Below are positions 2,549 through 24,647 of a stretch of 64,000 bases of DNA, in pieces. Within the stretch, counting starts at the first letter, position 1; each line of letters begins with the position of its first letter. The translations under genes and the position numbers were made by a program. Source of the stretch: Myxococcota bacterium (GTDB lineage: Bacteria > Myxococcota_A > SURF-8). Location: assembly GCA_963674735.2 (NCBI GenBank), contig CAXXQS010000002.1, forward strand, positions 1,248,001-1,312,000, given 5' to 3'. The notes under the pieces were generated by a model that worked only from the letters and a program-made list of their open reading frames with translations, was not told the origin of the DNA and made no database searches.

Positions 2549-3928
2549 TTAGATGCAATAGCCCACCGCGCCGTAAATGACGGCGGAGCAGCTGTAGCCG
2601 AAGCAACACTGGGGAAGCAAAACACCACAAACCACCGGGTTGGTGCAAGGACCGGCCACACAGTTCGGGGCGGTGGAGGCATCGCAGAATTGGTTTTCCG
2701 CGCAGGCCGGGCAGTTGATGACGCACTGATTGAAGGTGGGATCGCAGATATATCCCGGCGGACAACCGCCGCAATCGGCAGGACCCGGACCCGCGACGCA
2801 ACGTCCGTCGGTATCGCAGTTCAACGTGCCGGGGCAGGGGTTGCTGGCTCCGCACTGGGGTCGGCAGCAACCCTGTGTCTGACCGGTGACGATTTCACAG
2901 TAGGAACCCGCATCGCATTCGTAATCTCCGGCGCAGGCATCGCATTCGGGATTTTCGAGAATACAGCGGCCATAGTTGAGATCGGAGGTGTCTTTGATGC
3001 AGACATACAGCTCGGGGCAGCCTTCGCCGGGCAGTTCGCAGTAGCGTTTACACATGCCGTCGTCGCTGGTCGGCAGCCGATCGCAGAATTCGTCCAATTC
3101 ACAAGCATTATCGGAGCGACAATAGCCATCGATCGGCAAGCAAACTCCGTGGTCGCAGGTCCAACCACGTGGGCAACTGCCACCGGCCGTATCGCAGTTG
3201 GGGACGCAGACACCGTCGGTAGAACCGACGTAATTGGGCTGGCAGTATTCAAGATCGCCCGCACAGCCTTCATCGGTGGTACAGGCCGTGCCTTGCAGGC
3301 GGCATTCGGCTTGGTCGCACAATTCGTTGATGCCACACTCCGTTACGATCTCCCACCCGTCACCGGCAACATTGCAGACTTCCACCGTGTTGTCGTCCGC
3401 ACAGCGGCGGCGTCCCGGATCACAGTTGGTATCGTCGCCGTCGGGGTCGTCGCCATCAGCGCTGTCGGAGCAGGAGCCGTCGACACAGACTTTGCCATCG
3501 GACAGGCAATCGCGGTAGAAGGACCAGTCGCCTGCAACATCACATTTCTGAACATCGTTGCCCAAGCAGCGGAAGTCGCCCGCCGTGCACATTTCCGGAT
3601 CATCGCCGTCGGGGTCGTCGCCATCGCCGGCGTTACACTGGTCGTATAAAAGGCAGACGTTCGTCTCGGTTTCACAGCAGGTTCCAGCCGTTATGGTTTC
3701 GCAATCGGCATCGCTGGTACAGGAAGCCGAGCAGAACCCGACACCCGAAATCACCACGCAAAGGGAGGTCTCACAGTCGGCGTTGACGTTGCAGCTTTGG
3801 CCGAACGGTTTGAGGCCGGAATCGCCATCGGCTGCTTCGTCGCTATCTCCGCCGCAGGCTGCCAGTAACGCGATAGCCAACACGACGATCCAACACGCCA
3901 TCGCACCTTTTTTCAAAGCCTTCATCAT
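2549..3928 (-). CDS. Cysteine-rich repeat lipoprotein with DGD-rich linkers
   Basis: Lipobox LAAC; many CxxDxDC/EGF-like Cys modules; DGDDPDGDD linkers. Confidence 0.8.
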   Translation of the reverse strand: MMKALKKGAMACWIVVLAIALLAACGGDSDEAADGDSGLKPFGQSCNVNADCETSLCVVISGVGFCSASCTSDADCETITAGTCCETETNVCLLYDQCNAGDGDDPDGDDPEMCTAGDFRCLGNDVQKCDVAGDWSFYRDCLSDGKVCVDGSCSDSADGDDPDGDDTNCDPGRRRCADDNTVEVCNVAGDGWEIVTECGINELCDQAECRLQGTACTTDEGCAGDLEYCQPNYVGSTDGVCVPNCDTAGGSCPRGWTCDHGVCLPIDGYCRSDNACELDEFCDRLPTSDDGMCKRYCELPGEGCPELYVCIKDTSDLNYGRCILENPECDACAGDYECDAGSYCEIVTGQTQGCCRPQCGASNPCPGTLNCDTDGRCVAGPGPADCGGCPPGYICDPTFNQCVINCPACAENQFCDASTAPNCVAGPCTNPVVCGVLLPQCCFGYSCSAVIYGAVGYCI

Positions 3929-4711: not shown

Positions 4712-5776
4712 ATGGCTCATGTACTCACGATTATTGGAACACGCCCCGAAATCATCAAAATGGCTCCATTGATTCCACTATTGGACGATGCGTTCGAACA
4801 CACTTTTTTGTTCACCGGTCAGCATTACTCGCAAAACATGGTCGAGATCTTCCTCGACGAAATGGGTTTGCGCCGTCCCGATGCGTTTCTCGATGTCAAC
4901 GATTCCGATCGGGACCGTTTGGAGGAAGGTATTCGCGCCTGGTTGGTCGGTCGGCACTTTGATGCCGTTTTGGTATACGGCGATACCAACTCGACCCTGG
5001 CCGCCGCCCGTGCCGTGCCGAAAGAAGCCAAGCTCGTGCATATCGAGGCGGGTATCCGCAGTTTCGATTCACGTATGCCCGAGGAGTTCAACCGCATCGA
5101 GGTGGACCGCCTGAGTCATTACCGCCTGCCTCCGAGCGGGTTGGGACGTTATTTCCTCACCGATTTCGAAGGGATCGATCCCGATACGGTAGAGGTAGTC
5201 GGGAACCTGGTGGTGGACGCTTATCGCCAGAACCGCGAGCGTATCCTCAGCGCCCCCCTCGACGACGGTCTGTCGCCGCGCGGATATCATCTGCTCACCA
5301 TGCATCGCGCCGAAAACGTGGATGATCCCAAACGTTTGAAAGCGATTCTCGATAACCTGGCGCGGCTTGACAAGCCGGTGGTCTTCCCGGTGCATCCACG
5401 CACCGAGGCGCGCATGCGCGAATTCGGACTGGAGTTTCCGGTCAATCTGCGGATTCTCGAACCCTTGGGTTATTACCGCTTTATGCGCCTGATGCACGAC
5501 TGCGAACTGGTCATCACCGATTCGGGTGGCGTGCAGGAGGAAGCCGTTACGCTGGGTGTGCCTTGTATTACGCTGCGTGACAATACCGAGCGCATGGAGA
5601 CGGTGTTTCTACAGGCCGCGGTGCTCTACGATGCCGACCACCGGAACGATCTGGATGTGGTGGCCGCTGATATGTGCGCGCGCCGCGACGTCATCCGCAG
5701 CTTGAAAAACCCCTACGGCGAGGGCGATGCCGCCCAGCGCATCCTACGCTTTTTACAAGACAAACTGGCGGGGTGA
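4712..5776 (+). CDS. wecB: UDP-N-acetylglucosamine 2-epimerase (non-hydrolysing), paralog 1
   Basis: GTRPEIIKM, TGQH, GDTNST, HIEAGIRS, PEEFNR, TDSGGVQEEA and NPYGEG motifs. Confidence 0.92.
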   Translation: MAHVLTIIGTRPEIIKMAPLIPLLDDAFEHTFLFTGQHYSQNMVEIFLDEMGLRRPDAFLDVNDSDRDRLEEGIRAWLVGRHFDAVLVYGDTNSTLAAARAVPKEAKLVHIEAGIRSFDSRMPEEFNRIEVDRLSHYRLPPSGLGRYFLTDFEGIDPDTVEVVGNLVVDAYRQNRERILSAPLDDGLSPRGYHLLTMHRAENVDDPKRLKAILDNLARLDKPVVFPVHPRTEARMREFGLEFPVNLRILEPLGYYRFMRLMHDCELVITDSGGVQEEAVTLGVPCITLRDNTERMETVFLQAAVLYDADHRNDLDVVAADMCARRDVIRSLKNPYGEGDAAQRILRFLQDKLAG

Positions 5777-5890: not shown

Positions 5891-6805
5891 ATGGAACGTA
5901 TCGACGTCAAATGCGGATTCAATTGCAATAACAAATGCTTCTTCTGCGTGCAGGGCGATAAGCGCTATCACTACGCCGACAAAAGCACCGACGAAGTCAA
6001 AAAAGTCCTCGACGACGGCCGCAAGGACTCGGACGCGCTGGTTTTCACCGGCGGCGAAGTGACCATCCGCAAAGACTTCCCCGAATTGGTGGCGCATGCC
6101 AAATCGTTGGGATTCCGGGTGATTCAGGTGCAGACCAACGGTCGCCTGTTCGCCTCGAAGGCCTTTTGCGAAAAGATCATCGCAGCCGGAGCGACCGAAT
6201 TTTCTCCGGCTATTCACGGACATACGTCCGAATTGCACGATTTCCTCACCCATGCGCCGGGTGCGTTCAAGCAGACCGTGCACGGGATCCAGAATCTCAA
6301 GGCGCTGGGACAGACCATCGTCATGAATTCGGTGATAACGCGTCCCAACTATCGCAATCTGCCCGATATGGCGCGCCTGTTCTCGGCGCTCAAGGTCGAC
6401 CAATTCCAGTTCGCCTTCGTGCATGCCCTGGGCAGCGCCGAAAAGCATTTCGAGATGATCGTACCGCGCAAGTCGCTGGTGGAGCCGTACGTCAAGCAGG
6501 CGCTGGCCATCGGCGTCAAAAACGGCTGCCGCGTCATGACCGAGGCGATTCCCTATTGCTTCATGAGCGGCTTCGAGGTCTTTGTGGCCGAACGTTACAT
6601 TCCGCGCACCAAGATTTTCGATGCCGACTGGGTGGTGGACGACTACACCGATTACCGCTGGAACGAGGGCAAGGCCAAGGGCGAGCCCTGCAAAACCTGC
6701 GCTTACCAAGATGAATGCGAGGGTCCCTGGCGGGAATACCCCGAACATTTCGGTTGGGATGAATTCAAACCGCGACCGGAAAAGACCGATGTCCCAAAAC
6801 CCTGA
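5891..6805 (+). CDS. Radical SAM protein, HxsC-like putative peptide maturase 1
   Basis: CNNKCFFC, FTGGEVT, QTNGR and HDFLT motifs; C-terminal PYC and CKTCAYQDEC auxiliary Cys motif. Confidence 0.85.
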   Translation: MERIDVKCGFNCNNKCFFCVQGDKRYHYADKSTDEVKKVLDDGRKDSDALVFTGGEVTIRKDFPELVAHAKSLGFRVIQVQTNGRLFASKAFCEKIIAAGATEFSPAIHGHTSELHDFLTHAPGAFKQTVHGIQNLKALGQTIVMNSVITRPNYRNLPDMARLFSALKVDQFQFAFVHALGSAEKHFEMIVPRKSLVEPYVKQALAIGVKNGCRVMTEAIPYCFMSGFEVFVAERYIPRTKIFDADWVVDDYTDYRWNEGKAKGEPCKTCAYQDECEGPWREYPEHFGWDEFKPRPEKTDVPKP

Positions 6806-8465
6806 CGAACAAAAGGGCGGTCTTTCCGATGACGTGCGCGACGTCCGCGAACAGGCGGTGCATGAATACCGCCACTGGGTGCGTACCACCTACGCCTGCA
6901 ATAATCGTTGTATTTTCTGCCTTGACGGCGATGTCAGCCGCGCGCGTCATTTGCCCAAGGCGGAAGTTTTCGCTGAGATCGAGCGGGGTTTCCAGCCCGG
7001 TGCGCGTCTGATCGTCTCGGGTGGGGAAGCCTCCATCCACCCGGATTTCATCGACTTTGTCGCCCATGGCAAGCGTGTCGGTTACGGCTGGATTCAAACC
7101 ATCACCAACGGCCGCATGTTCGCCTACGAACCCTTCACACGCAAAGCCGCCGATGCCGGATTGAACGAAGTCACCTTCTCGATGCACGGCCACACCTCGG
7201 AGATTCACGACACTTTGACGGGGATCAAAGGTGGTTTCGCCCAGGCGCTGCGCGGCATGCGCAACCTGCTGAAGGACGGCCGGGTGGTGATCAACGTGGA
7301 CTGCGTCATCAACGGCTTGAATTACAAACACTTGGACGACATCCTGCAGTTTTACATGAAGCTCGGTATCCACGAATTCGACCTCTTGCAGATCGTTCCC
7401 TTCGGGCGCGCCTGGTACGATGAAAATCGCGAGCGTCTGTTCTACGATGTCGAAGAAGCCTTCCCCTATCTCAACCGCGCCTTTCAACGGGCCTACAAGC
7501 CCGGCAATTACATCTGGACCAACCGGTTCCCGGTGGCCTACCTCGAAGGCATCGAGGATCTCATTCAGGATCCGCACAAGCTGTTTGACGAGATGCGCGG
7601 ACGGCGCGACGAGTTCGAGCATTTCGTCGATAGCGGTCAAAAGCTGCGCTGTTTCGGCGAGCGTTGTCGCTACTGCTTCCTGCAGGACTATTGCGATACC
7701 CTGCACCGTTTGCACGATCGTTTAAGCGTGGGTGGATTTGCGCGGGTGGCGGTGGATCTCGTCGAAAATGACAATCTCATCGCTCCCTCCGCCCTCAAAG
7801 CGCAGATCGAGAAAAGCGGAATCCGCCGTTTGCGTTTGTCGGCGCGAGACGCGACGCAGGCGCGTGAGTGGATGTCGCGCATGGATGGCTTTCTGCCGGA
7901 TGAAATCGAATTGTCTCTCGACGATTGGACGGCTTTCCTCGACGAAGTCACGAAGCGTCCGCCGGTGGAAACCTGGCCGGGCCTGCGGCGGCTGGTGGTC
8001 ATGACGCCGGATGCGCTCGATGCGCTATCGGCGCTCGATATCGAATTGGAAATACCGGTGTTGACCGATCTGATGGAGACGCTCAACGGACGCAAACACG
8101 AATTGGCCGAACGCGGACGAGTGTGGTTGCGCTGGCCGACGGTGGAAACACTGAACGAGGCGCGTGCGCAAGTCCCCGATCCGGCGGCGTTTCTGGCCGA
8201 TTGGCAGGATGTGCCGGTGAAGGTCTTGGGTGTGCCGCTCTGTCTGCATCCCGGCGCGGAAACCGATCCGCCCACTTTGCGTCTATCAAGTCTCGACGTC
8301 ACGGGGCGTCTCGATATGCCTTCTTTCACCCGCGATTACATTCGTTTCGACTACGAAGCCAAATCCAACCGTTGTCGCAACTGCGCGCAGACGGCCGCCT
8401 GTCGCGGTCTACATCTCAACACCCTGCGTGTGCACGGCTTCAAGACGTTGAGACCGTTCGAGTAA
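6789..8465 (+). CDS. Radical SAM protein with long C-terminal extension, putative peptide maturase 2
   Basis: CNNRCIFC, SGGEAS and TNGRM motifs; two further Cys clusters (CRYCFLQDYC; PLC...CRNCAQTAAC); ATG 6789 overlaps the end of the upstream gene. Confidence 0.85.
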   Translation: MSQNPDEQKGGLSDDVRDVREQAVHEYRHWVRTTYACNNRCIFCLDGDVSRARHLPKAEVFAEIERGFQPGARLIVSGGEASIHPDFIDFVAHGKRVGYGWIQTITNGRMFAYEPFTRKAADAGLNEVTFSMHGHTSEIHDTLTGIKGGFAQALRGMRNLLKDGRVVINVDCVINGLNYKHLDDILQFYMKLGIHEFDLLQIVPFGRAWYDENRERLFYDVEEAFPYLNRAFQRAYKPGNYIWTNRFPVAYLEGIEDLIQDPHKLFDEMRGRRDEFEHFVDSGQKLRCFGERCRYCFLQDYCDTLHRLHDRLSVGGFARVAVDLVENDNLIAPSALKAQIEKSGIRRLRLSARDATQAREWMSRMDGFLPDEIELSLDDWTAFLDEVTKRPPVETWPGLRRLVVMTPDALDALSALDIELEIPVLTDLMETLNGRKHELAERGRVWLRWPTVETLNEARAQVPDPAAFLADWQDVPVKVLGVPLCLHPGAETDPPTLRLSSLDVTGRLDMPSFTRDYIRFDYEAKSNRCRNCAQTAACRGLHLNTLRVHGFKTLRPFE

Positions 8466-8503: not shown

Positions 8504-8533
8504 TTGACGCTGTTCGCATCGATGTGTTAGGAT
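8504..8533 (+). promoter_or_regulatory. Putative sigma70 promoter
   Basis: TTGACG-N18-TAGGAT with TGn extension upstream of the GT-C gene. Confidence 0.4.
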
Positions 8534-8557: not shown

Positions 8558-10816
8558 GTGGAGGTGGATGTGAACGGGTTGAACGACAAGAAAACGCAGC
8601 GGCTGATTATGGCCGGACTGCTGGTGATTTCCGTGGTGATTCTCTTCTCGCGCTTGGGCGTTTATCCGCTGCAGATGCAATGGGAGCCCAACTACGGCCA
8701 GGTCGTGCGCGAGATGGTCTGGGGCGAAGGCAACGAGATTACGCCCACCTGCAAGGTCGGGTCCGACGAAGGTGCCGCGCCTGGGACTTTCTGGTCCAAG
8801 CCCATCATGATCTTCTGGCTGGCTTATCCCTTCTATGCCATGTTCGGCGACAGCGAATGGTCGGCGCGCGGTCCCATTGCGGCGCTCGGGGTGATCGTCA
8901 TCCTGTTCACCTACTGGTTTATGTCGCGTTTATACACGCGCCGGGTAGGTGTGTTGGCTTCTCTGCTGTTGCTAACGACCCCTGCTTACTTCCTGATTTC
9001 AAGAGCTTATATGGTCGACTTACCCTTTGTCGGCTTCATGTGGATGGGGGTGGGCTTTCTGCTGCTCGGGGAGAAAGAGGGCCGCGAACGTTGGTACAAC
9101 CTGTTTTTCGTTTTTCTGGGTTTGTCGGCGCTGGCCAAGGGTTTGACCCCGATCATCCTCACCGGTGGGACGGTCTTCTTTTATTGCCTGGTTTCGGGCG
9201 ACTGGGGCTTGCTCAAGCGGATGAAGTTGCATAAGGGGCTCATCATCTTCCTGATCGTCGCCGGTCCCTGGTATATCTACATGTCCAGCAAGTACGGTAT
9301 GCCGTATCTGAAGAAGTTTTTCTGGGACCACCATGTGGAGCGTTCGCTGGGCAAGCTCGACAAGCCCGACGACACCTTCGAGATGTTCGTGCTCTATTTC
9401 TCCATCGGCGTTTTGCCATGGATCACCTTTTTACCGCAGGCCGTGGCGACCATGCTGCCTTGGCGGCGGCGCGAAGCCGACCATCGTCGGCTGGAGCTGT
9501 TCTTCTTTATGGGCTTTCTGGTCACCTTCACCTTTTTCTCGGTGATTTCGACCAAGTTTGTGCACTACATCTTCCCAGCCGTTCCATACACCATGATGTT
9601 GATCGCGCTCTACATCGATCGCTTGTTCACCGAAAACGACCGGGGCGAGCTTAATCGTGTGAGTTTCTTCGCCGCGCTGATGGTGTTGTTGATCATCGCG
9701 CCCGATCTGATCGACATGAAGAACTACCGCACCTTGTTCTACTTCATCACCACCGAGCGCTTGCAGGACTGGCACCCCAATGTGGCCGATCCCAGCTACT
9801 TTTTCTCCATCGTGTTCGCCATCTGGGGGGTGGTGCTGTTCGTTTCCTTTGTGATCCGACGTTTCAACCGCTGGATTTTCGGCGGGTTGTTGGCCTTGTC
9901 GATCGCCTACGCTTTCTACATCAATTTCCAGATGATTCCGACTTTGACCGAAATGTTCTCGGCGCGTTCGATGATGCAAACCTACCTGGCCATGCGAGCC
10001 GGTCCCGACGAGCCTATCGGCGAATTTACGCAAACCTGGAAATCGCGTTCGATCAAGTACGAGATGCCCTTCAAGGAACTGAAGGACACCTACCAGTATC
10101 GTCGCTATCGCATTAACAACAATCTCAACTCGGTGCGGCGTTACTACCAAACCTACAAAGGCAAGCGCGTTTTCATCATCATCGAGCAGAAGCAGAAACA
10201 TTTCGACCGCATCAATGCCTTGTGGCAGGAAGTGTCGGATGGCGAGAAGCTAATCAAGATTTTCGACGACAGCGTGCCGGGCGAGCCGTATCGCTCGGAA
10301 TTCTGGCTGCTTTCCAACCGCGACAACTTCGGGCGGGCCGTCAAATTGACACCGGAGCAGATGATGGCCGAATTGGAGCAGAATGTACGCCGTAAACCCT
10401 TTGACGTACCGCAGAAATTGGAAGTCGATTTCGAAGGCGAGATCGATCTTATGGGTACCGATGCCATTCCGACCAAAATCAAGGCCGGATCGGAATTGAC
10501 CCTCGCCCTGTACTTCAAGGCCAAGCGTAAACCCACGCGCGATTACAAGATTTTCATTCACGCGGAGCGCGCCACCACGTTCCGCCTGCGCGGCGATCAT
10601 GTCCCCGTGAGCGGCCGCTATCCCACCACGCGCTGGAAGGAAGGCGATTACATCAAGGATGTCTATAAGTTGGACATCCCACCCAATACGGCCCCCGGCG
10701 AGTTGGAAATCTTCATCGGTCTCTATCAGGGCAACTATCGCGCCCGGATGGCCGATGTCCCGCAGCGTGACGGCGAGGGCCGCCTGAAAATCGCCACCGT
10801 CGAGGTAACGCTCTAA
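8558..10816 (+). CDS. ArnT/PMT-family (GT-C) glycosyltransferase with C-terminal Ig-like domain
   Basis: Multi-TM; WEPNYG..REM, F.SKP, LAKG, PWY, LPW and K..HYIFP motifs; C-terminal IFIH...DH.P..G.YPTTRWK.G..I.D domain; start uncertain (GTG 8558/8570). Confidence 0.85.
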   Translation: MEVDVNGLNDKKTQRLIMAGLLVISVVILFSRLGVYPLQMQWEPNYGQVVREMVWGEGNEITPTCKVGSDEGAAPGTFWSKPIMIFWLAYPFYAMFGDSEWSARGPIAALGVIVILFTYWFMSRLYTRRVGVLASLLLLTTPAYFLISRAYMVDLPFVGFMWMGVGFLLLGEKEGRERWYNLFFVFLGLSALAKGLTPIILTGGTVFFYCLVSGDWGLLKRMKLHKGLIIFLIVAGPWYIYMSSKYGMPYLKKFFWDHHVERSLGKLDKPDDTFEMFVLYFSIGVLPWITFLPQAVATMLPWRRREADHRRLELFFFMGFLVTFTFFSVISTKFVHYIFPAVPYTMMLIALYIDRLFTENDRGELNRVSFFAALMVLLIIAPDLIDMKNYRTLFYFITTERLQDWHPNVADPSYFFSIVFAIWGVVLFVSFVIRRFNRWIFGGLLALSIAYAFYINFQMIPTLTEMFSARSMMQTYLAMRAGPDEPIGEFTQTWKSRSIKYEMPFKELKDTYQYRRYRINNNLNSVRRYYQTYKGKRVFIIIEQKQKHFDRINALWQEVSDGEKLIKIFDDSVPGEPYRSEFWLLSNRDNFGRAVKLTPEQMMAELEQNVRRKPFDVPQKLEVDFEGEIDLMGTDAIPTKIKAGSELTLALYFKAKRKPTRDYKIFIHAERATTFRLRGDHVPVSGRYPTTRWKEGDYIKDVYKLDIPPNTAPGELEIFIGLYQGNYRARMADVPQRDGEGRLKIATVEVTL

Positions 10817-10829
10817 GGTGAGGAGCCCG

Positions 10830-12323
10830 ATGGACGAGCGTCCGTCCACCCGTGAAACCGCCCGCCGAGCCGGGCGCGGTCTGATCTGGATCAGCGCCGC
10901 CAAGGCCTACTTCATCCTGTCGGGTGTTGCCCTCATTACGTTTTTACCGCAGTTCATCGGCCGTACCGACCAGGAGCGGGCGGAATTGTATGGTGATTTC
11001 ACGGTGGTTATCGGAATTCTGAATCCGTTGACCATGATGATGATCACCGGTGTCCTGCAGGCGGTGAGCCGTTTTGTCTCGGAAGATCCACGGCGCTATC
11101 GGGCCGTTCGTCGGGAATCCACGATTTTACAAGCTATTTTCGGGTTTGTGGTGGCGTCCGGCTTTGCCTTGCTGGCTCCCTGGATCGCCCGCCTGCTGGG
11201 TGATGTCGCCTTGACTCCCTACCTGCAGTCCGCCAGTGTCATTATTCTGTTTTACTCCATCTATGCTGCGCTGGTGGGTGGGTTGAACGGTCTGCGTCGC
11301 TTCGGGACGCAAGCCGTGCTCGATACGGCCTTCGCCACATTGAAAGTCGGCCTGATTCTTACGCTGACGGCCCTCGGCTTTGGTGTGATGGGGGCGGTTG
11401 TGGGGTTTGCCGCGACATCCGGGTTGATGTTGGTGGTTGTGTGGGTGATTTCCTCCCGACGCGCGCAGCCGACGGACGGCGCGGGTGTCGGGTGGCGTCG
11501 GCTGCTGCGTTTCGAAGCTTGGATTATGGGTTTTGCTCTGGCGGCCAACCTGCTGATGAACGCCGATCTGTATGTAGTCAAGGCGCTTGGGCCGGGAGAT
11601 GCCGCCACCGGTATTTACGCGGTAGCGTTGCAGGTGGCGCGTCTGCCTTATATCGCCGTGATTTCCGTCACCTTCGTCGTTTTTCCGCTGGTTTCGGCGG
11701 CCAGCGGCGCAGAAAATCTCATCCGCATGCGCGGTTACATCGAAACGACGGTTCGCTACGTTCTCATTCTGACGGTCTGTCTGGCGGTGACGCTCTCGGC
11801 GGCGGCTGCGGATGTTTTGCGTCTGGCTTTCGCCCCGATCTTTTTCGAGGGCTGGCCGCTGTTGTCGGTTTTGCCGCTGGCCTATGCGGGCTACGCCTTG
11901 ATGATCGTTTTTGCCACCATCCTCACCGGTTCGGGGCGTCCGGTCCAATCGTTGATCCTGGCGGGGGTGACCTTGCTTCTTTCGGTGGTGGCCAATGCTT
12001 TCGCCATTGCACCGTTCGGTTTGTTCGGGGCGGCGGTGGCGACCGCTTCGGCCATGTTGCTTGGGGCGGGCCTCGGTTGGTGCTTGCTGGTCCGATCGTT
12101 CAAGCCGGCCTTTCCCTGGGCAACGTTTGGTCGTCTGGGGTTGGCTTCGCTGGCCGTCTATGCCACATCCGCTTTCTGGCAACCCGAGGCTCGCGGACTG
12201 ATTGTTGCCAAAGGATTGATTTTGTTAACAATTTTCATAGGATTGCTGGTTCTTATGAAAGAATTGAGGGCCGAAGACAGCGCTCGCTTCAAAGCCGTAA
12301 TCAGCCATAAACGATCGGAGTGA
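10830..12323 (+). CDS. Oligosaccharide flippase (MOP/Wzx-like, SpoVB-like)
   Basis: About 14 hydrophobic segments; G.LNG, GAVVG, D...VK, GIYA..L and GAAVAT patterns; ATG after GAGGAG. Confidence 0.82.
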   Translation: MDERPSTRETARRAGRGLIWISAAKAYFILSGVALITFLPQFIGRTDQERAELYGDFTVVIGILNPLTMMMITGVLQAVSRFVSEDPRRYRAVRRESTILQAIFGFVVASGFALLAPWIARLLGDVALTPYLQSASVIILFYSIYAALVGGLNGLRRFGTQAVLDTAFATLKVGLILTLTALGFGVMGAVVGFAATSGLMLVVVWVISSRRAQPTDGAGVGWRRLLRFEAWIMGFALAANLLMNADLYVVKALGPGDAATGIYAVALQVARLPYIAVISVTFVVFPLVSAASGAENLIRMRGYIETTVRYVLILTVCLAVTLSAAAADVLRLAFAPIFFEGWPLLSVLPLAYAGYALMIVFATILTGSGRPVQSLILAGVTLLLSVVANAFAIAPFGLFGAAVATASAMLLGAGLGWCLLVRSFKPAFPWATFGRLGLASLAVYATSAFWQPEARGLIVAKGLILLTIFIGLLVLMKELRAEDSARFKAVISHKRSE

Positions 12324-13042: not shown

Positions 13043-16000
13043 ATGCGAATCAAGCGATTGGACATCAACGGGTTCAAGTCGTTTCCCGACAAAGTGACCC
13101 TCATGTTCGACCAACCCATCGTGGGCGTTGTCGGTCCCAACGGTTGCGGCAAATCGAACATCGTGGACGCCATCCGCTGGGTGATGGGCGAACAAAGCAT
13201 CAAAGCTCTACGCGGCAGCGGACGCGAGGATGTGATTTTTTCCGGTAGCGAATCGCGCGCGCCGTTGGGCGTGGCGGAGGTGACCCTCACCTTCGACAAC
13301 CGCGACAAGCTGGCACCGTCCGAATATGCGGAGTATCCCGAAATCGCCGTTTGTCGCCGTCTCTATCGTGACGGAAGCAGCGATTACCAGATCAACAACG
13401 CCCCCTGCCGTCTGCGCGATATCACCGAACTTTTCCTCGGCACCGGTGCGGGCAACAAAGCCTATTCCATCATCGAGCAGGGCCGCATCAGCCTGATCGT
13501 ATCGGCCAAGCCGGAAGACCGCCGCCTGATGATCGAGGAGGCTGCGGGGATTACCAAGTATCACGCCCGCAAGCGCGAGGCCGAACGCAAAATGGCGGCC
13601 ACGCAGCAGAACCTGACCCGCATCGGCGATATTATCGCCGAGCTGCGCAAACAATTGAACAGCTTGTCGCGTCAAGCCAAAAAGGCCGAGCGTTATCGTG
13701 ATCTGAAAAAACGGCTCAAGGAAATCGATCTGCGTTTTACCGGCCGTGAATACGCCGAGGTGCTCGACGCGATCGAGCAGACCGCGAAAGCCGTGACTGA
13801 ACTGAGCGAGCGTCAGGCTGGTATGGGCGGTAAAATCGTCGCCATGGAAGGCGAAGTGGATGCCCGCAATCTGAAACTGGCCGCGCGCGAGCGAGAACTG
13901 AACGACTGGCAGGAGATCATCCACGGCCTGGATCAGTCGATTCGACTGGATGAACGCAACATCGAAGTCTTCAGCGAGGAGCTTCAGCGTATCAGCGAAC
14001 GCGAAGTGGAGATCGACAACGAACTCGACGGTCTGGATCAGACGCTGAAAGAACAACGTGAACGCGTCACCGATCTGGAAGGCGAGCAGCAACGCGCCTT
14101 GGCCGGGTCGCAGGAAGGTGAGCGTATTCAGAGCGAAGCGGAAGAACGCTATCGTCTATCCGCGCAGGAGTTCGACCGTCAGCAGCAGGAGATCGACCGC
14201 TCGAAACGGGCCATTTTCGAACATATGGCCGCCACCGATCGGGCTCTGCATAAGCTGGAAACGCTTCGCAACCGTCTGACCGACAACACCGAGCGGGCCG
14301 AGCGCAATCGCCGGGAACGCCAGGACGTGGAACGCAAGCTCACCGAATTCGAAACCTCCCGCAAGGACTTCGTCGATGCCTTGGGCGGCTTGCGGCAAAT
14401 GAAATTGAAATTGGAAAGCGCGCGCAACGAAAAAGCCGAAACCTTGGAGCGTGAACGAAACTCCTATCTGGATACGGAAGAACGTTTGACCGCCGAACGC
14501 GACCGCCTCACGGCGAGCCGTTCACGGCTGGACTCCCTCCGCGAGTTGGATGAGGCCTTGGAAGGCTTCGGGGATAGCGTGAAAAAGCTGCTGTCTCCCG
14601 ATGGCGATGGACCGGGCTTCGGCGACGGCGAGGTGGTGGACGCCTTGGCGCGGCTGGTGAAAGTCGATCCCGCCTATGAACGCGCGGTCGGTACGCTTTT
14701 AGGCGAGCGGCTGCAATGGCTGGTGGTGACCGGGCAGGAAGCCGGTCGCAAGGGCGTTGCCTGGTTGAAGAAAAACGACGCGGGTCGGGCGGCTTTCTTG
14801 CCGCAGGACGCGCCGCAGCCGGAGGCGCCGGCCACCTTGGGTGACGGGGCTCTGCCGTTGGCGGAAGTGGTGTCCGCCGCGGGCGTGACCGAGAGCGTAG
14901 TCAAGCGCATGCTTGAAGACGCCTACATGGTGGATGACCTCGATACGGCCTGTCGTCTATGGCGCGAAACCGGCGGGCGCTACCGCTTCGTGACTCCCGA
15001 AGGCGATTTTGTCGATGCGAGCGGTGCCGTGGGCGGCGGATCGGGCGACCAGATCTCTCAAACCCTGCTCAAGCGCCGTCGTGAAATGGAAGAGCTGGAA
15101 GCCGTCGGCCGCGAGCTGGGGCAGGTGTGCGAACGCCTGGCGCGCGAACGTGACGAACGCGTGCAGCTCATTCGTCAACTTGAAGGGCACATCGAGACCG
15201 TTCGGCAAGACAGCCACCGCCAGGAAATGAAAATCCTGGAACAGGAAAAAGACATCAACCGCATCGAGTTCGAACTCGGGCAGTTTCAGCGGCAACTCGA
15301 CAGCCTGGACCGCGAATATGTCGGACTCAAAGACGAAGCCCGGCAATTCGAGCTTGAGCGCGATGAATTGGAAGTAGAGCGCAAAACGGCGCATCAGCGG
15401 CGTGAGGAAAGCGAAGCCGAGCTGAAGGCCATGCAGGAGACCCTCGACGAAAAGGCCACGCAACGCGAGGAGGCATCGCGGCGTTTGACCGAGACGCGCG
15501 TCAAGACGGCCGAGGCTTTGCAACGCCGCCAGCATCTGGAGTCGGATCTGCGCTTGGCGCGGGAACGCGAAACCGATCTGGCCGGACGTTCCGAGCGTCT
15601 GGCTTTCGAACGTCGCCGGGGAGCGGAGCGACGTGAAGAACTGACGCGCGAACTGGCCACCACGCGGGTGCGTTTGGAGGAACTGATCAAGCGTTCCGAG
15701 CGTGAACAGGACAAGCTCAGGGATGCGCGCAACGCTTTGGCGGAAGAACAGGAAACCATTCGCGGTTTCGCCGAGGGCGTGCGTGTTCAGCGCAAAGAAC
15801 TGGATGCGATACGCGCCGAATTGTCTGAAAAACAGATTGCCCAAAAAGAATTGGGCCTGCGTGCCGAACACCTGATCGAGCGCGTGGATGAACGCTACGG
15901 AATCACCCTGCCCACCGAATACACGGAATATCTTGACGACCCGGCTCCAGGTGACGACGAGCGTAGCGAGATGGAAGACATTCGTCTTCGTATCGAGCGC

Positions 16001-16594
16001 ATGGGCGAGGTCAACCTTACCGCCATCGGCGAGCATGACAGTGTTTCAGAACGCTATCAATTCCTGTGTGACCAGGAAGACGATCTGACCCGTTCGATGT
16101 CCATGCTGCAGGAGGCCGTCGATAAAATCAACCGCACCACCCGTAAGCGCTTCAAAGAAACCTTCGACGAAGTAAACACTCGTTTCTCGAAACTCTTCCC
16201 CGAGTTGTTCGGTGGGGGTGAAGCGGAGTTGATGTTTACCGATCCCAATAATTTGTTGCAAACCGGTATCGAAATCGTCGCGCGGCCTCCGGGCAAGAAG
16301 CAGCAGCCCGTCAGCCTGCTATCCGGTGGTGAGAAGGCGCTTACGGCTGTCAGCATGATCTTCGCCATCTTTTTGTATCGGCCTACGCCTTTCTGCTTGT
16401 TGGATGAGGTGGACGCGCCGCTCGATGATGTGAATATCGGCCGCTTTATCGCGACGATCAAGCGTATCTCCAAAACCAGCCAATTCATCTTGATCACCCA
16501 CAACAAGAAAACCATGGAGATTTCCAACACGCTGTACGGGGTCACCATGGAAGAACCCGGCATTTCGAAAATCGTGTCGGTGAACTTGACGTAA
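13043..16594 (+). CDS. smc: Chromosome segregation protein SMC
   Basis: GFKSF, Walker A GPNGCGKSN, coiled coils, hinge, LSGGE and LDEVDAPLD. Confidence 0.98.
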   Translation: MRIKRLDINGFKSFPDKVTLMFDQPIVGVVGPNGCGKSNIVDAIRWVMGEQSIKALRGSGREDVIFSGSESRAPLGVAEVTLTFDNRDKLAPSEYAEYPEIAVCRRLYRDGSSDYQINNAPCRLRDITELFLGTGAGNKAYSIIEQGRISLIVSAKPEDRRLMIEEAAGITKYHARKREAERKMAATQQNLTRIGDIIAELRKQLNSLSRQAKKAERYRDLKKRLKEIDLRFTGREYAEVLDAIEQTAKAVTELSERQAGMGGKIVAMEGEVDARNLKLAARERELNDWQEIIHGLDQSIRLDERNIEVFSEELQRISEREVEIDNELDGLDQTLKEQRERVTDLEGEQQRALAGSQEGERIQSEAEERYRLSAQEFDRQQQEIDRSKRAIFEHMAATDRALHKLETLRNRLTDNTERAERNRRERQDVERKLTEFETSRKDFVDALGGLRQMKLKLESARNEKAETLERERNSYLDTEERLTAERDRLTASRSRLDSLRELDEALEGFGDSVKKLLSPDGDGPGFGDGEVVDALARLVKVDPAYERAVGTLLGERLQWLVVTGQEAGRKGVAWLKKNDAGRAAFLPQDAPQPEAPATLGDGALPLAEVVSAAGVTESVVKRMLEDAYMVDDLDTACRLWRETGGRYRFVTPEGDFVDASGAVGGGSGDQISQTLLKRRREMEELEAVGRELGQVCERLARERDERVQLIRQLEGHIETVRQDSHRQEMKILEQEKDINRIEFELGQFQRQLDSLDREYVGLKDEARQFELERDELEVERKTAHQRREESEAELKAMQETLDEKATQREEASRRLTETRVKTAEALQRRQHLESDLRLARERETDLAGRSERLAFERRRGAERREELTRELATTRVRLEELIKRSEREQDKLRDARNALAEEQETIRGFAEGVRVQRKELDAIRAELSEKQIAQKELGLRAEHLIERVDERYGITLPTEYTEYLDDPAPGDDERSEMEDIRLRIERMGEVNLTAIGEHDSVSERYQFLCDQEDDLTRSMSMLQEAVDKINRTTRKRFKETFDEVNTRFSKLFPELFGGGEAELMFTDPNNLLQTGIEIVARPPGKKQQPVSLLSGGEKALTAVSMIFAIFLYRPTPFCLLDEVDAPLDDVNIGRFIATIKRISKTSQFILITHNKKTMEISNTLYGVTMEEPGISKIVSVNLT

Positions 16595-16607: not shown

Positions 16608-18053
16608 ATGAATGGATTCAATTTCGAGCTTAGTTTAGAGAAGTTTTACCAGCTGGTGGTGACCAACGATGCGGTTTTCTACAGCGTCATCGCGGCCACG
16701 GCGTTGCTGTTGATTCTGTTGATCTGGCGGCTGGCGCGCGTGGGTAAGCCGTTTGACGATTTGGAGGATGAGGCGGATCCGGATCGCGAAAAACGCGATC
16801 GGATGGTCGATCACATGATCGAAGACATCACCCATCAGGCACCTGAGCACGAACGCATCGAAGAACCGCGCATACAACCGGTGCAGCCGACGCCGGAAGA
16901 TCTTGAGAAGCTGCGCCAACGCCGGATGGAAGCGAACACCGACACGGTGGAAGTGCTGCGCACGCTTTCCACGGATTCGGCGGTCAAGGCCTACCAAACC
17001 CGGCCGGTGGGAGAAGCGGAACCGGAGCTGGTTCACCTGCAACAAGCTCCCGTGCCGGATCAGACTCCTCAGCCTGTGCCCGCCGAGACACCGAAACCGG
17101 TCGTCAAGCCGGAACCTACGCCCAAACCCAAGCCGAAGGCGAAAGCGGAGCCCAAGCCGAAAACCCTGGAAGAAGGGCTGGCTAAAACCAAAGGCGGTTT
17201 TATCAATCGTCTCAACAGCTTGGTATTCGGCCGTAAACAGATCGATGATGCCATTTTCGAGGAATTGGAAGAGATTCTGTACGAAGCCGATATCGGTCCC
17301 ACCGCCACGCGCTTGTTCGATAAAGTGGCCGAGCAGGCCAAGCGCAACGAATTGAAAGACCCCGAGCGTATTCGCGAGCTGCTGCGCGAAGAAATCGGCC
17401 TGATTCTGGCCAAGGCCGAGAAACCCTTTGTGTTATCCGATGAAAAGCCCCAGGTGATCCTGATGGTGGGCGTCAACGGCGTGGGTAAAACCACCACTAT
17501 CGGCAAGCTGGCCAAATCGTTTTCCGATCAAGGCAAACGGGTGATGCTGGCCGCGGGTGATACCTTCCGCGCGGCGGCAGTGGAACAATTGGATGTTTGG
17601 GGTAAGCGCGCCGATGTTGACGTGATCAGCGCCAAAGAAGGGGCCAATCCCTCCGGGGTGATCTATTCGGCGGTGGAAGCGGCTAAAGCGCGCGAGGTGG
17701 ATGTGCTGATTGCCGATACCGCCGGGCGATTGCACACCAAGTATAACCTGATGGAAGAACTGCGGAAAATGAAATCCGTTGCGGGGAAGGCCCTGGGGCG
17801 CGAGCCGGACGAGATCTGGTTGGTGCTCGATGCCAATACCGGCCAGAACGCGGTCAATCAGGCGGCCAAATTCCACGAAGCCCTGGGTTTGACGGGACTC
17901 ATCCTCACCAAGCTCGACGGCACGGCCAAGGGCGGTGTGGTCATCGGCATCACCGACCAACTGGAGCTCCCCATTCGCTTCATCGGTATCGGCGAGGCGG
18001 TGGCGGATCTGCGGCCCTTCGTTGCCAAGGAATTTGTGGAAGCACTGTTCTGA
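16608..18053 (+). CDS. ftsY: Signal recognition particle receptor FtsY with N-terminal TM helix
   Basis: GVNGVGKTTT, DTFRAAA, DTAGR and TKLDGTAKGG; follows smc. Confidence 0.97.
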   Translation: MNGFNFELSLEKFYQLVVTNDAVFYSVIAATALLLILLIWRLARVGKPFDDLEDEADPDREKRDRMVDHMIEDITHQAPEHERIEEPRIQPVQPTPEDLEKLRQRRMEANTDTVEVLRTLSTDSAVKAYQTRPVGEAEPELVHLQQAPVPDQTPQPVPAETPKPVVKPEPTPKPKPKAKAEPKPKTLEEGLAKTKGGFINRLNSLVFGRKQIDDAIFEELEEILYEADIGPTATRLFDKVAEQAKRNELKDPERIRELLREEIGLILAKAEKPFVLSDEKPQVILMVGVNGVGKTTTIGKLAKSFSDQGKRVMLAAGDTFRAAAVEQLDVWGKRADVDVISAKEGANPSGVIYSAVEAAKAREVDVLIADTAGRLHTKYNLMEELRKMKSVAGKALGREPDEIWLVLDANTGQNAVNQAAKFHEALGLTGLILTKLDGTAKGGVVIGITDQLELPIRFIGIGEAVADLRPFVAKEFVEALF

Positions 18054-21959: not shown

Positions 21960-22829
21960 TCAGTGCAATTGAGGTTCCTGGTCGTCGGAGTCGTCGAACC
22001 AAGGGGTGTTTTCGGGACTGCTGGGGGCTCGGTCGGAAGCGGTGAGTGAGCTTGGCTCGGTCGGATTTTGGCTCTTCGCTTCCGGGGTTTCGTTTGTTTC
22101 GGATTCCCCGCGGCGCACTGCCATGATTTGTTCGAGAAATCCGAGCGAAAAGCGCCGTGACTTATACAAGCTGCGCAAATCGGGAAGGGACAGCGAAGGC
22201 AGAATGAGCATGACCAGCCGGGGAGGCGTATCGGGGTTGTTGAGCAGAGCGGTTTTCACCCGATAGCGGGCAAACCACTTGGGATGTTCCACCACCTGGC
22301 GTAGGGCTTCCGGGTGGTTGGGACGTCTGGCGCATATTTTGATGACGTGTTCTTCTTTAAGCTGCGGATGACGCAGCAGGTTTTTAATGACGGCCGGATC
22401 GGGGTCGACCAGGAGTTTTTCGAGCAGAAGCGGCGAAGCTTTGCGGGCATGCCACTTACGTTCGCCGAGTGTCATATCCTGCAAGTCCTGATGGGCCTGC
22501 AGGTTTTTCGGTTTCGGCTTGCGAATGGGCAGGGGGGCCAGCCATTCCGTGGCCAGCAGCAGACCTTGGCGGTCGGCGATATCGAAAATCGTACTCAGGC
22601 GACGTCCGAAGCATTCGCGAACGATACTGAAATCCGTCATATCTCGAAGTAGAGCCAGGCTGTTACGATTTTTCCGAATGGCTTGGCGATAAAGTTCGTC
22701 GAATAAATGGGCGACTTCTTCATCGCTGAAACGGGAAAACTCGTGGGCGGTGCGCCGTGCACGGAAGCTCGCTTCTTTGAGGGGCCTTACGCGTTCGGCG
22801 ATGGCCCGGATGATGTCATCATAGTCCAT
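21960..22829 (-). CDS. Hypothetical helical-repeat protein (LRV/HEAT-like)
   Basis: LTLGERK-like segment, DPDPAVIKNLLRHP and RVKTALLNNPDTP. Confidence 0.6.
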   Translation of the reverse strand: MDYDDIIRAIAERVRPLKEASFRARRTAHEFSRFSDEEVAHLFDELYRQAIRKNRNSLALLRDMTDFSIVRECFGRRLSTIFDIADRQGLLLATEWLAPLPIRKPKPKNLQAHQDLQDMTLGERKWHARKASPLLLEKLLVDPDPAVIKNLLRHPQLKEEHVIKICARRPNHPEALRQVVEHPKWFARYRVKTALLNNPDTPPRLVMLILPSLSLPDLRSLYKSRRFSLGFLEQIMAVRRGESETNETPEAKSQNPTEPSSLTASDRAPSSPENTPWFDDSDDQEPQLH

Positions 22830-22938: not shown

Positions 22939-23352
22939 TTACCAACTCCCGTGGGAACCATGTGAGCCGTGGGAGCCATGCGAGCCGTGGGAGGCGTGGG
23001 AGCCATGGGAGCCGTGGGAGCCGTGGGAACCATGAGAACCGTGGGAGCCATGCGAGCCATGCGAGCCATGCGAGGCATGCGAACCGTGCGAGGCATGTCC
23101 GGCATGCAACGACTGTCCCTCGGCCATGGCGGCTTGAATGTCCGGCGAATGGCCGTCCAGATAGTCGGCTGCGTCGTGATGGTCCGGTCCGATGTTGATC
23201 CCTTCTTTTTCAGCTGCTTCGAGCGACTGTCCCAGGAGAAGCAAAGTTGTGGATGCCGTGAGGGCTTGCTTCTTGGTGATTTTGCCTTCTTCTCCCGTGA
23301 GGAACTGGCCGACCTTTTTTTGAATTTTAGGGAGCTTGCGTTTCGCACTCAT
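22939..23352 (-). CDS. His-Xaa-Ser repeat peptide (HxsA-like precursor), 137 aa
   Basis: AAGGAG RBS before ATG 23352; basic leader KLPKIQKKVGQFLTGEEGKITKK; C-terminal HAG + 17 x H[GA]S + W. Confidence 0.88.
   Translation of the reverse strand: MSAKRKLPKIQKKVGQFLTGEEGKITKKQALTASTTLLLLGQSLEAAEKEGINIGPDHHDAADYLDGHSPDIQAAMAEGQSLHAGHASHGSHASHGSHGSHGSHGSHGSHGSHGSHGSHASHGSHGSHGSHGSHGSW
22945..23106 (-). repeat. 9-bp coding tandem repeat x18 (14 HGS, 3 HAS, 1 HAG)
   Basis: Counted from the DNA; third codon positions vary. Confidence 0.95.
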
Positions 23353-23579: not shown

Positions 23580-24647
23580 TCAGTCCCGAATTTCATTTTG
23601 GATGATTCGGCCCAGTTCGGCCAGACGCGTCATGACCAATTCGGCTTCCATTTCGCTCATGGTTCCCATGCCGCAAGAAGGCGTGATCATGCTCTGTCGC
23701 CAGATCAGGTCTTCATCGATGCCGTGTTTGGCCAGGTGGGCGACCAGTTGTCGTAGGTGGGCGGCGAGATTCTCGGTTGTTTGGGTATGAATGTCGGCCG
23801 ATGTGGGAACGACGCCCCAAGCCAGCGCGCCGCCGTCTTCGAGGAAGGGCCCAATACGATCCGCATAAAGAGCGATGCTTTCACCGTAGCTGAAGGCGTC
23901 GAAATTGAGAATATCGGCTCCGGCGTCGATCAGGATCGTCCATTCGGTGTTGCCGCAGACATGGACGCCGACCACGGCCTTTTCTTCGTGCACGGCCGCG
24001 ATTGCCTGTGACAGGTAATGGACGACGTCTTCGCGGGTGACGTTGATATAGCAGGACGAACCGAAAGCCGACAGGGTCGGTTCATCGAGAAAACAAATCA
24101 CCTTTTCGGCATAATCGCGGAACAGGCGTACCTGCCAGCGCGCGTTCAGCGCCGCGTTTTGCGTGGCGACTTCAGCTAAAGCATCATTGAAAAAAATGGG
24201 CTTGCCTGTTTCGTCGAATACCGTCAGCGCGAAGGATACCGGTCCGGTGGCGTGAACTTTCACAAAGGGCGGTTTCGCTTCAAGTGCTTTGAAGCGTTCA
24301 AGTGCGGCCGGAATTCCGGCGGAAGCCTCGGTCGAGATGGCGAAACGACTGAAATCACTCGATTCCGGCGCCGCAAACGCCGCTTCGTAAAAGGAAGTCA
24401 GTTCATCGGTCAGGCTTTCGCGGTTGGCATCGATGGAGATCTTGGCGCTGTCGGGATGCTTGACTAAACCCGGTAGCCCTTCGCCATATTGCGGTAAAAA
24501 TCCCTCGCGCCAGTCGCGTTTGGGAAGTTGGGGCCAAATGGGGGCTTCGGGGACGCATTTAAGAATCCAGTCGAGTGCGGCATGGGGATCGGTATGGGGC
24601 AGACTTCCGATCATGGTGGTCAATCCCCGGGGTGCGTCGATTCTCAT
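23580..24647 (-). CDS. Core (catalytic-domain-only) methionine synthase, MesB-like
   Basis: IGSLPH, WPQLP, TGPVS, LDEP, Zn ligands HVC and TPSCG, and WGVVPT; half the length of MetE. Confidence 0.82.
   Translation of the reverse strand: MRIDAPRGLTTMIGSLPHTDPHAALDWILKCVPEAPIWPQLPKRDWREGFLPQYGEGLPGLVKHPDSAKISIDANRESLTDELTSFYEAAFAAPESSDFSRFAISTEASAGIPAALERFKALEAKPPFVKVHATGPVSFALTVFDETGKPIFFNDALAEVATQNAALNARWQVRLFRDYAEKVICFLDEPTLSAFGSSCYINVTREDVVHYLSQAIAAVHEEKAVVGVHVCGNTEWTILIDAGADILNFDAFSYGESIALYADRIGPFLEDGGALAWGVVPTSADIHTQTTENLAAHLRQLVAHLAKHGIDEDLIWRQSMITPSCGMGTMSEMEAELVMTRLAELGRIIQNEIRD

Follow-up and report, generated by a model that had tools for sequence, protein, structure and literature searches.

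A pair of HxsC-like radical SAM genes in a Myxococcota genome as probable maturases of a dispersed, multi-HxsC variant of the His-Xaa-Ser system

Two overlapping genes at positions 5891-8465 of a 64,000-nt stretch of Myxococcota DNA (GenBank assembly GCA_963674735.2, contig CAXXQS010000002.1, positions 1,248,001 to 1,312,000; the whole stretch is called the window) encode paralogous radical S-adenosylmethionine (SAM) enzymes that resemble HxsC of the His-Xaa-Ser (HXS) systems, and no open reading frame (ORF) for a precursor peptide lies beside them. This raises the question of which peptides such isolated enzymes may act on, and together with which partners. In function, the two enzymes are likely to be part of the Hxs machinery: we propose that they are HxsC-type maturases in a multi-HxsC form of the HXS system, the genes of which have become dispersed in this lineage. 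The basis for this reading is family resemblance, conserved catalytic cysteines, neighbourhood association in other genomes and co-occurrence across whole genomes.

According to the available part of its recent description, the canonical HXS system is an anti-phage system arranged as HxsD-HxsB-HxsC-HxsA that blocks phage DNA entry (Li et al., 2026, Nat Commun, PMC13128918). The same part of that article reports a +8 Da modification in one HxS repeat, the chemistry of which is unsolved, a complex of HxsC and HxsD revealed by pull-down, and the placement of 99.7% of HXS systems in Pseudomonadota (PMC13128918).

The gene pair and its relation to HxsC

The pair consists of the following features of the window.

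5891-6805, forward strand: rSAM1, 304 amino acids, HxsC-like radical SAM enzyme of an unnamed family (ORF call, Pfam, NCBIfam)
6789-8465, forward strand: rSAM2, 558 amino acids from the ATG at 6789, paralogue of rSAM1 (ORF call, NCBIfam)
6789-6805, forward strand: overlap of rSAM1 and rSAM2, 17 nt (sequence)

The overlap suggests that translation of the two genes may be coupled. Their products are related to each other as paralogues, being 32% identical over 279 residues (E 7e-43), and every motif by which the original prediction had characterized the overlapping pair could be located in both: CNNxCxFC at residue 12 of rSAM1 (CNNKCFFC) and residue 37 of rSAM2 (CNNRCIFC), GGE at residues 54 and 78, TNGR at 82 and 106, HGHTSE.HD.LT at 109 and 133, and the terminal CxxCx5CxG at 267 and 529. 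An extra Cx4Cx2Cx5C motif at residue 288 is found in rSAM2 only. The radical SAM cysteines of rSAM1 (CxxxCxxC at 12-19) and four further ones (C223, C267, C270 and C276) are invariant in a 29-sequence alignment, and among 11 rSAM2 orthologues the same is true of the core cysteines C37, C41 and C44 and of eight further cysteines in two motifs (C288/293/296/302 and C485/529/532/538). These extra sets fit one auxiliary Fe-S cluster in rSAM1 and two in rSAM2, which the proteins would bind in addition to the radical SAM cluster. Both proteins exceed the gathering threshold of the radical SAM family PF04055 (69.1 bits for rSAM1 and 66.3 bits for rSAM2 against 29.5); no other Pfam domain was detected in either of them, and the SPASM/twitch domain PF13186 was not matched.

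An AlphaFold2 model of rSAM2 (pLDDT 86, pTM 0.85) places an alpha/beta insert, a stretch of about 180 residues at approximately 315-480, between the two auxiliary cysteine motifs. The insert has no named family: a fold search of the PDB with the whole model matched radical SAM cores only, and an Atlas search with residues 305-558 returned unnamed clusters only. The PDB matches of the model, all of them to generic radical SAM cores (BlsE, SkfB, DesII and MoaA), do not discriminate between peptide and sugar substrates.

Hidden Markov model (HMM) searches, which the original prediction had proposed as a check of its assignment by motif resemblance, gave HxsC4 (NF038332) and then HxsC (TIGR03977, an equivalog model) as the top NCBIfam models for both genes, so that the likeness to HxsC stood while membership of either family as defined did not. 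rSAM1 scores 176 bits on HxsC4 against a cut-off of 500 and 107.5 bits on HxsC against 267.9, and rSAM2 scores 101.4 and 78.2 bits, respectively, against the same cut-offs; since these values are far too low, rSAM1 and rSAM2 are not members of HxsC or HxsC4. AhbD comes next, with 84.6 bits for rSAM1 and 64 bits for rSAM2, and AhbD and NirJ rank third and lower among the matches. In addition, rSAM1 can be aligned from end to end with a protein annotated as HxsC on an Aeromonas plasmid (23% identity over 288 residues, E 3e-16), and this alignment takes in the C-terminal CxxCx5CxG. The paired radical SAM enzymes of Hxs systems, to which the original prediction likened the two genes, are HxsB plus HxsC rather than two HxsC paralogues.

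True HxsC4 (at least 500 bits) was found in 8 of 151 sampled genomes of the phylum, none of them in the family or order of the present genome, and the HxsC4-like gene that other families have just upstream of the rSAM1 orthologue, scoring 265-390 bits, is a paralogue distinct from the pair. Therefore, rSAM1 and rSAM2 are best regarded as unmodelled sister families of HxsC and HxsC4 and not as HxsC4. This placement relies on HMM ranks and gene context, the alignable HxsC-like core being about 200 residues long and deeply diverged. rSAM1 itself is strongly conserved, with 2913 proteins at E<=0.001 among 3701 candidates, which are named at most 'radical SAM protein'.

Hxs components near rSAM1 orthologues and across the phylum

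Gene neighbourhoods were compared at 80 loci carrying rSAM1 relatives of 51-80% identity. Crude ORF calls up to 10 kb on each side were clustered, and each cluster received its name from Pfam and NCBIfam matches of a single representative; the HxsB and HxsD labels each come from one such representative (479 bits against a cut-off of 370 and 59.8 bits against 50, respectively). The titles of records with rSAM1 relatives name Myxococcota, Omnitrophota, Elusimicrobia, Verrucomicrobia, Planctomycetia, Saccharibacteria, Parcubacteria, Woesearchaeota, Pacearchaeota and others. HxsC-like radical SAM arrays of two to ten genes occur at 76 of the 80 loci (244 genes), a membrane protein of 412 amino acids at 34, HxsB at 28, an ORF with at least three HxS units at 24 and HxsD at 14. 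An rSAM2-type gene (at least 200 bits and at least 35% identity) is present at 37 loci and directly follows the rSAM1 orthologue at 24, comprising 22 detected by script and the overlapping cases L035 and L043 recognized by eye; nine of these genes cover the C-terminal extension.

At locus L063, an HxS peptide, an HxsD-like gene, HxsB (503 bits), the rSAM1 orthologue (57% identical), an rSAM2-type gene and a third HxsC-like gene follow one another. The rSAM1 orthologue thus takes the position which HxsC has in the canonical operon. Clusters with HxsD, HxsB, an HxS peptide and multiple HxsC-like genes were also noted at L062, L065, L073, L074, L082, L095 and L099; the titles of these records name Parcubacteria, Saccharibacteria, Woesearchaeota, Methanosarcinales and Candidatus Fermentimicrarchaeum, which takes the distribution well beyond the Pseudomonadota, the range given for HXS in the literature. 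Loci of Elusimicrobia that combine NifH/NifD-like paralogues with rSAM1 orthologues include L079, L084, L088, L093, L095, L103, L104 and L108, among others. Four ORF clusters (c4_355, c5, c10 and c11) were left out of account because they probably represent shadow ORFs on the strand opposite to radical SAM genes; the check was made for c4_355 only, whose tblastn matches lie on the strand opposite to the radical SAM gene C1:2788-3786.

The 412-residue protein closes the HxsC-like arrays at the loci where it occurs (representative L054:13534-14772). It is polytopic, with six segments in a hydropathy scan, and has two invariant aspartates, the second of them in a GDxK motif; we take this combination to be a signature of A24 peptidases. 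Its feature-based neighbours in the Atlas are Peptidase_A24 clusters (0.93-0.94), and in a fold search the GxGD protease FlaK was the sole high-probability match (0.92, target TM-score 0.48, E 0.44), none of the matches reaching E<=0.001. Pfam, NCBIfam and a sequence-profile search of the PDB returned nothing meaningful for it. On balance, the protein is somewhat favoured as a candidate leader peptidase of the A24/GxGD type.

The association extends to whole genomes. The 151 genomes of the phylum were searched for HxsB, HxsD, HxsA4 (E<=1e-6) and rSAM1, the last at E<=1e-70, a threshold chosen because the paralogues inside the present genome (up to 155 bits) were to be excluded. HxsB was detected in 59 genomes, HxsD in 58, HxsA4 in 61 and an rSAM1 orthologue in 45. 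All 45 rSAM1-positive genomes have both HxsB and HxsD and 43 of them have an HxsA4 match, the misses being G042, which is 79% complete, and G028; among the 92 HxsB-negative genomes, rSAM1 was found in none. Fourteen HxsB-positive genomes are without rSAM1 at this threshold. In the families of mixed presence (f6, f14, f17 and f25), every genome with rSAM1 is also one with HxsB, and in nine genomes of other families an rSAM1-like gene (42-56% identical) abuts HxsB. Neighbourhood analysis and phylogenetic profiling with the peptide, both suggested by the original prediction, came out in its favour: in other phyla, HxsB, HxsD and HxS peptides are encoded close to rSAM1 orthologues, and within this phylum HxsB and HxsD accompany rSAM1 in 45 of 45 genomes.

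Dispersed Hxs components and precursor peptides in this genome

Besides the pair, Hxs parts lie in at least three other places, which gives at least four separate loci for HxsB, HxsD, the pair and the peptides and bears out the earlier idea of a split system.

Window 22939-23352, reverse strand: orphan HxsA4-type precursor of 137 amino acids (NF038313, 85.8 bits against a cut-off of 55)
C1:2646762-2649588: HxsB (554.3 bits against 370), a second HxsA4, and a radical SAM gene of 322 amino acids that is PapB-like rather than HxsC-like
C1:1623-5518, reverse strand: HxsD (66.8 bits against 50), a protein of 314 amino acids without family, an HxsC-like gene of 332 amino acids, and a homologue of the 412-residue protein

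The pair lies on contig C2 and HxsB on contig C1, so that the adjacency of HxsC to HxsB is not seen here. The genome contains the HXS components HxsA4-type precursor, HxsB and HxsD, and they do not form one cluster. The best HxsC score in the genome, 113 bits, belongs to the 332-residue gene beside HxsD; none of the 27 matches in this genome passes the HxsC cut-off, and a complete set of Hxs maturases elsewhere, which the original prediction had named as a possible objection, is therefore absent. In other families of the phylum, the array consists of the HxsC4-like gene, rSAM1, rSAM2, rSAM4 and the 412-residue protein. The HxsC-like gene beside HxsD is the rSAM4 orthologue (55% identical), and since the homologue of the 412-residue protein is located there as well, the ancestral array seems to have been broken between rSAM2 and rSAM4. 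This homologue (C1:1623-2775, reverse strand, in L032) matches in two reading frames that join near C1:2205-2212, which could be a frameshift or an assembly error. Dispersal is common to the family and the order: in G036, G024, G012 and G018, large distances or contig boundaries separate the genes for HxsB, HxsD, rSAM1 and HxsA4.

Apart from rSAM1 and rSAM2, the genome has 19 further tblastn matches to rSAM1 (E<=1e-8). These paralogues include a tandem of four and two tandem pairs (C1:1873596-1877418, C1:744881-747075 and C1:994942-996684) as well as single genes on C1 and C2. On C1, genes for two LIC13354/LIC13355-like exoproteins and for a TonB-dependent receptor come after the HxsB/HxsA4/PapB-like genes (L031:5724-13959, C1:2646723-2654958). 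From this setting, one might suspect that the product is rich in His, that it is exported or taken up again, and that it possibly binds metal.

The peptide at 22939-23352 was confirmed as the His-Xaa-Ser peptide that had been noticed about 14.5 kb from the pair. Its parts are a leader that is rich in Lys and carries FLxGEEGKITKK, a hydrophobic segment, a tract of 17 HxS units (22945-23097) and a Trp at the C terminus. A scan for ORFs with at least three tandem HxS units found two in the whole 5.26-Mb genome and one in the window (22945-23097, reverse strand), which agrees with the earlier statement that no such small ORF is located near the pair. The two same-strand genes flanking the orphan peptide (21960-22829 and 23580-24647, both reverse) have no family; the 355-residue flank protein gave only a sub-threshold Meth_synt_2 match (17 bits against 21).

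The second HxsA4 peptide, beside HxsB on C1, scores 80.9 bits against the cut-off of 55 and falls below that of the canonical HxsA model TIGR03979 (22.9 bits against 121.65). The two peptides are 68% identical and have the leader in common, and both share their layout with peptides from compact clusters of other phyla, the genes of which adjoin HxsB and rSAM1 orthologues. In this layout, the start is rich in Lys, and FLxSEEGKIxKK, a hydrophobic stretch, (HxS)n and a Trp or Tyr at the C terminus complete the peptide. Given the shared leader and the high identity, the pair probably serves both peptides, and to judge from their sequences both copies should be substrates of one machinery.

From these data we infer substrate, step order, chemistry and biological role as follows. 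The two HxsA4-type precursors would be recognized via their shared leader by HxsB and the adaptor HxsD, which are encoded elsewhere. Covalent modifications in the HxS repeat tract would then be introduced by rSAM1, rSAM2 and at least one further HxsC-like enzyme, rSAM4, encoded beside HxsD. The chemistry would proceed through a 5'-deoxyadenosyl radical, with one or two auxiliary Fe-S clusters, and the leader would probably be removed by the GxGD-type membrane peptidase that is conserved at the array end in other genomes. The pair would act in trans, most likely on both peptides. The assignment of leader recognition to HxsB/HxsD and of repeat modification to rSAM1/rSAM2/rSAM4 is proposed by analogy, as is the suggested anti-phage role. 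A PADLOC 2023 scan of nine system proteins gave weak viperin-type radical SAM matches only, its library being without an HXS model.

Co-folding of rSAM1 with residues 28-205 of the only HxsD in the genome gave 0.49 (runs of 0.19, 0.60 and 0.49) against 0.00 for the best control, with at least 41% of contacts agreeing between runs and a partner pLDDT of at least 55. Of 80 solved complexes, 58 attain the co-fold mark, as do 2 of 110 mismatched pairs, but at values of 0.60 or below only 7 of the 80 and both mismatches do so, so that the predicted contact may be taken as weak support.

A more far-reaching version of the proposal is possible, although we hold it only tentatively and rather doubt it as a whole. 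It posits an undescribed 'super-Hxs' pathway, in which 3-10 HxsC-like paralogues, HxsB, HxsD and a GxGD-type peptidase would act in turn on short membrane-anchored (HxS)n-Trp peptides, yielding a product heavily cross-linked at His and Ser. Its role would be unlike the canonical periplasmic block to DNA entry, for instance in metal binding or at the cell surface. By record titles, this pathway would span Myxococcota, Omnitrophota, Elusimicrobiota, Verrucomicrobia, Planctomycetia, candidate-phyla-radiation bacteria and DPANN archaea, and in one Myxococcota order it would operate in trans from at least four loci.

Alternative explanations and relation to known systems

The original prediction had named the peptide at 22939-23352 as the substrate of the pair. 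In its strict form, this means that the pair is dedicated to this peptide, as one half of a two-part split cluster held loosely on the chromosome. In favour of this, the peptide is a genuine precursor of the HxsA4 type and lacks an adjacent maturase, no HxsC-like unit is nearer to it than the pair, and at least three genera of the family (the present one and those of G036 and G024) have retained an orphan second copy. Nevertheless, the distance is not maintained. The orphan peptide of G036 (0.964 Mb) lies 3.7 Mb from the rSAM1 orthologue (4.677 Mb), and that of G024 lies 0.78 Mb away, for which reason the spacing of 14.5 kb is considered incidental. Moreover, the same-order genomes G012 and G018 have a single HxsA4 copy and still keep rSAM1. 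With the other, closely similar copy adjoining HxsB on a different contig and HxsD at a third place, the window peptide is neither the only nor the obvious candidate substrate, and a dedicated partnership with it is unlikely.

The genes around the pair suggest another substrate.

4712-5776, forward strand: wecB (262 bits on TIGR00236), separated from the pair by a gap of 114 nt
8558-10816, forward strand: PMT_2 glycosyltransferase (Pfam), after a gap of 92 nt behind rSAM2
10818-12323, forward strand: Wzx-like flippase (library match)
13043-16594: smc (Pfam)
16608-18053: ftsY (Pfam)

smc and ftsY separate the pair from the orphan peptide, as had been noticed before. Standing on one strand with short gaps between wecB, PMT_2 and the Wzx-like gene, the pair might belong to a wecB/GT-C/Wzx envelope-glycan row and modify a sugar nucleotide or a lipid-linked glycan, and the presence of BlsE and DesII among the top solved-structure matches of rSAM2 is in line with this. 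The context is not conserved, however: among the 80 loci, wecB and SLOG each occur once and PMT_2 and Wzx not at all, a count that includes L033 (80% identical) and L034 (74%). A promoter-like site at 8504-8533 (forward strand; TTGACG, 18 nt, TAGGAT, with TG), a consensus match only, lies in the gap between rSAM2 and PMT_2. The strict nesting of rSAM1 within HxsB/HxsD-positive genomes is left unexplained by a glycan substrate, which we consider improbable.

Least probable of all is that the HxsC-like arrays build a small-molecule cofactor, e.g., of tetrapyrrole type as has been proposed for the radical SAM suites beside nitrogenase paralogues of Elusimicrobia, with the HxS peptides unrelated or serving as scaffolds only: NifH- and NifD-like genes lie within 10 kb at 8 of the 80 loci each, HemN-like radical SAM genes at 7, up to 13 radical SAM genes stand beside nitrogenase paralogues in the available part of a 2020 preprint (10.1101/765248), and AhbD and NirJ appear among the lower HMM matches, whereas HxsB, a SPASM protein of peptide-maturase type, and HxS peptides are much commoner neighbours, the nif-linked loci L095 and L104 also hold HxsB and an HxS ORF, and the nif-like genes of the present genome are not beside any HxsC-like paralogue. 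The latter form two NifH/NifD-like sets, at C1:1576977-1581230 and C2:235830-240023.

Membership in a dispersed Hxs machinery, the reading preferred here, also has to be weighed against several observations. Both proteins fall far short of the curated HxsC and HxsC4 cut-offs, and rSAM1 is without the N-terminal extension of about 110 residues found in the canonical HxsC of 401 amino acids. The closest solved folds include the sugar-nucleotide enzymes BlsE and DesII alongside the peptide maturase SkfB. No Hxs component adjoins the pair in this genome, where its same-strand neighbours are wecB, the PMT_2 glycosyltransferase and the Wzx-like flippase, and any of the 19 further paralogous matches could act on peptides as well. 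The co-occurrence count of 45 out of 45 overstates independence because the sampled genomes are related, and it carries no statistical test; the orthologue threshold and the ORF clustering are the analysts' own choices.

With the canonical HXS system, the present one has in common an HxS-repeat precursor, the radical SAM/SPASM protein HxsB (554 bits here), the small protein HxsD (66.8 bits here) and HxsC-like enzymes with an equal core and the C-terminal CxxCx5CxG. It differs in having several HxsC-like paralogues, none of them at the HxsC cut-off, instead of one HxsC, and at least four separate loci instead of one operon. Its precursor is short (130-137 amino acids), contains 17 HxS units and a hydrophobic segment, ends in Trp, and unlike the canonical one shows no peptidoglycan-binding domain by Pfam. 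The variant is present in Myxococcota and many further phyla.

The HxsA4 (NF038313)/HxsC4 (NF038332) models indicate that curators know a fourth Hxs variant. Both peptides pass HxsA4, and HxsC4 is the top model for rSAM1 and rSAM2; the difference is that the pair forms unmodelled sister families and that true HxsC4 is found in neither the family nor the order of this genome. No paper on HxsA4 or HxsC4 was found in the literature on His-Xaa-Ser/Hxs, the names coming from NCBIfam.

In groundwater Elusimicrobia, group VI nitrogenase paralogues accompanied by radical SAM suites have been reported, as far as the available part of the preprint goes (Meheust et al., bioRxiv 10.1101/765248). The arrays are similar, and rSAM1 orthologues that are 51-57% identical occur in loci with NifH/NifD-like genes. 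Some of these loci differ in containing HxsB and HxS-repeat ORFs, and the nif-like genes of the present genome are unlinked to its arrays. Neither 'His-Xaa-Ser' nor 'peptide' occurs in the available portion of the text of 10.1101/765248. A 2022 paper mapping radical SAM enzymes, in the part available, mentions HxsB and HxsC just in passing. The other relevant items found are the 2026 HXS article with its preprint, and genome notes. Multi-HxsC arrays, the rSAM1/rSAM2 families and a dispersed system are thus not described in the His-Xaa-Ser/Hxs literature found, of which some sources were available in part; the supplements with variant gene orders (PMC13128918) and Figure S6 of the preprint may show related arrays. 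Judged by sequence, what appears to be new here is the multi-HxsC, dispersed variant of the HXS system.

A function was assigned to HXS only in 2026, as an anti-phage barrier reported to be nearly confined to Pseudomonadota and to have one HxsC per system. The present data point to a far wider and more elaborate relative, with HxsB in 59 of 151 genomes of a single phylum, a lineage in which every component is unlinked, and, in bacteria and archaea whose genomes are tiny, HxS-peptide clusters that contain as many as about ten HxsC-like genes. Mining approaches that look for modified peptides or defence systems by gene clustering would overlook the dispersed form. The rSAM1 and rSAM2 families, hitherto annotated merely as 'radical SAM protein', gain a testable role, and the many paralogues may provide a route to the chemistry of the +8 Da HxS modification.

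Elsewhere in the window, positions 2549-3928 (reverse strand) encode a Cys-rich, Asp/Gly-rich protein of 459 amino acids with a lipoprotein-like start, which has no match in Pfam or NCBIfam.

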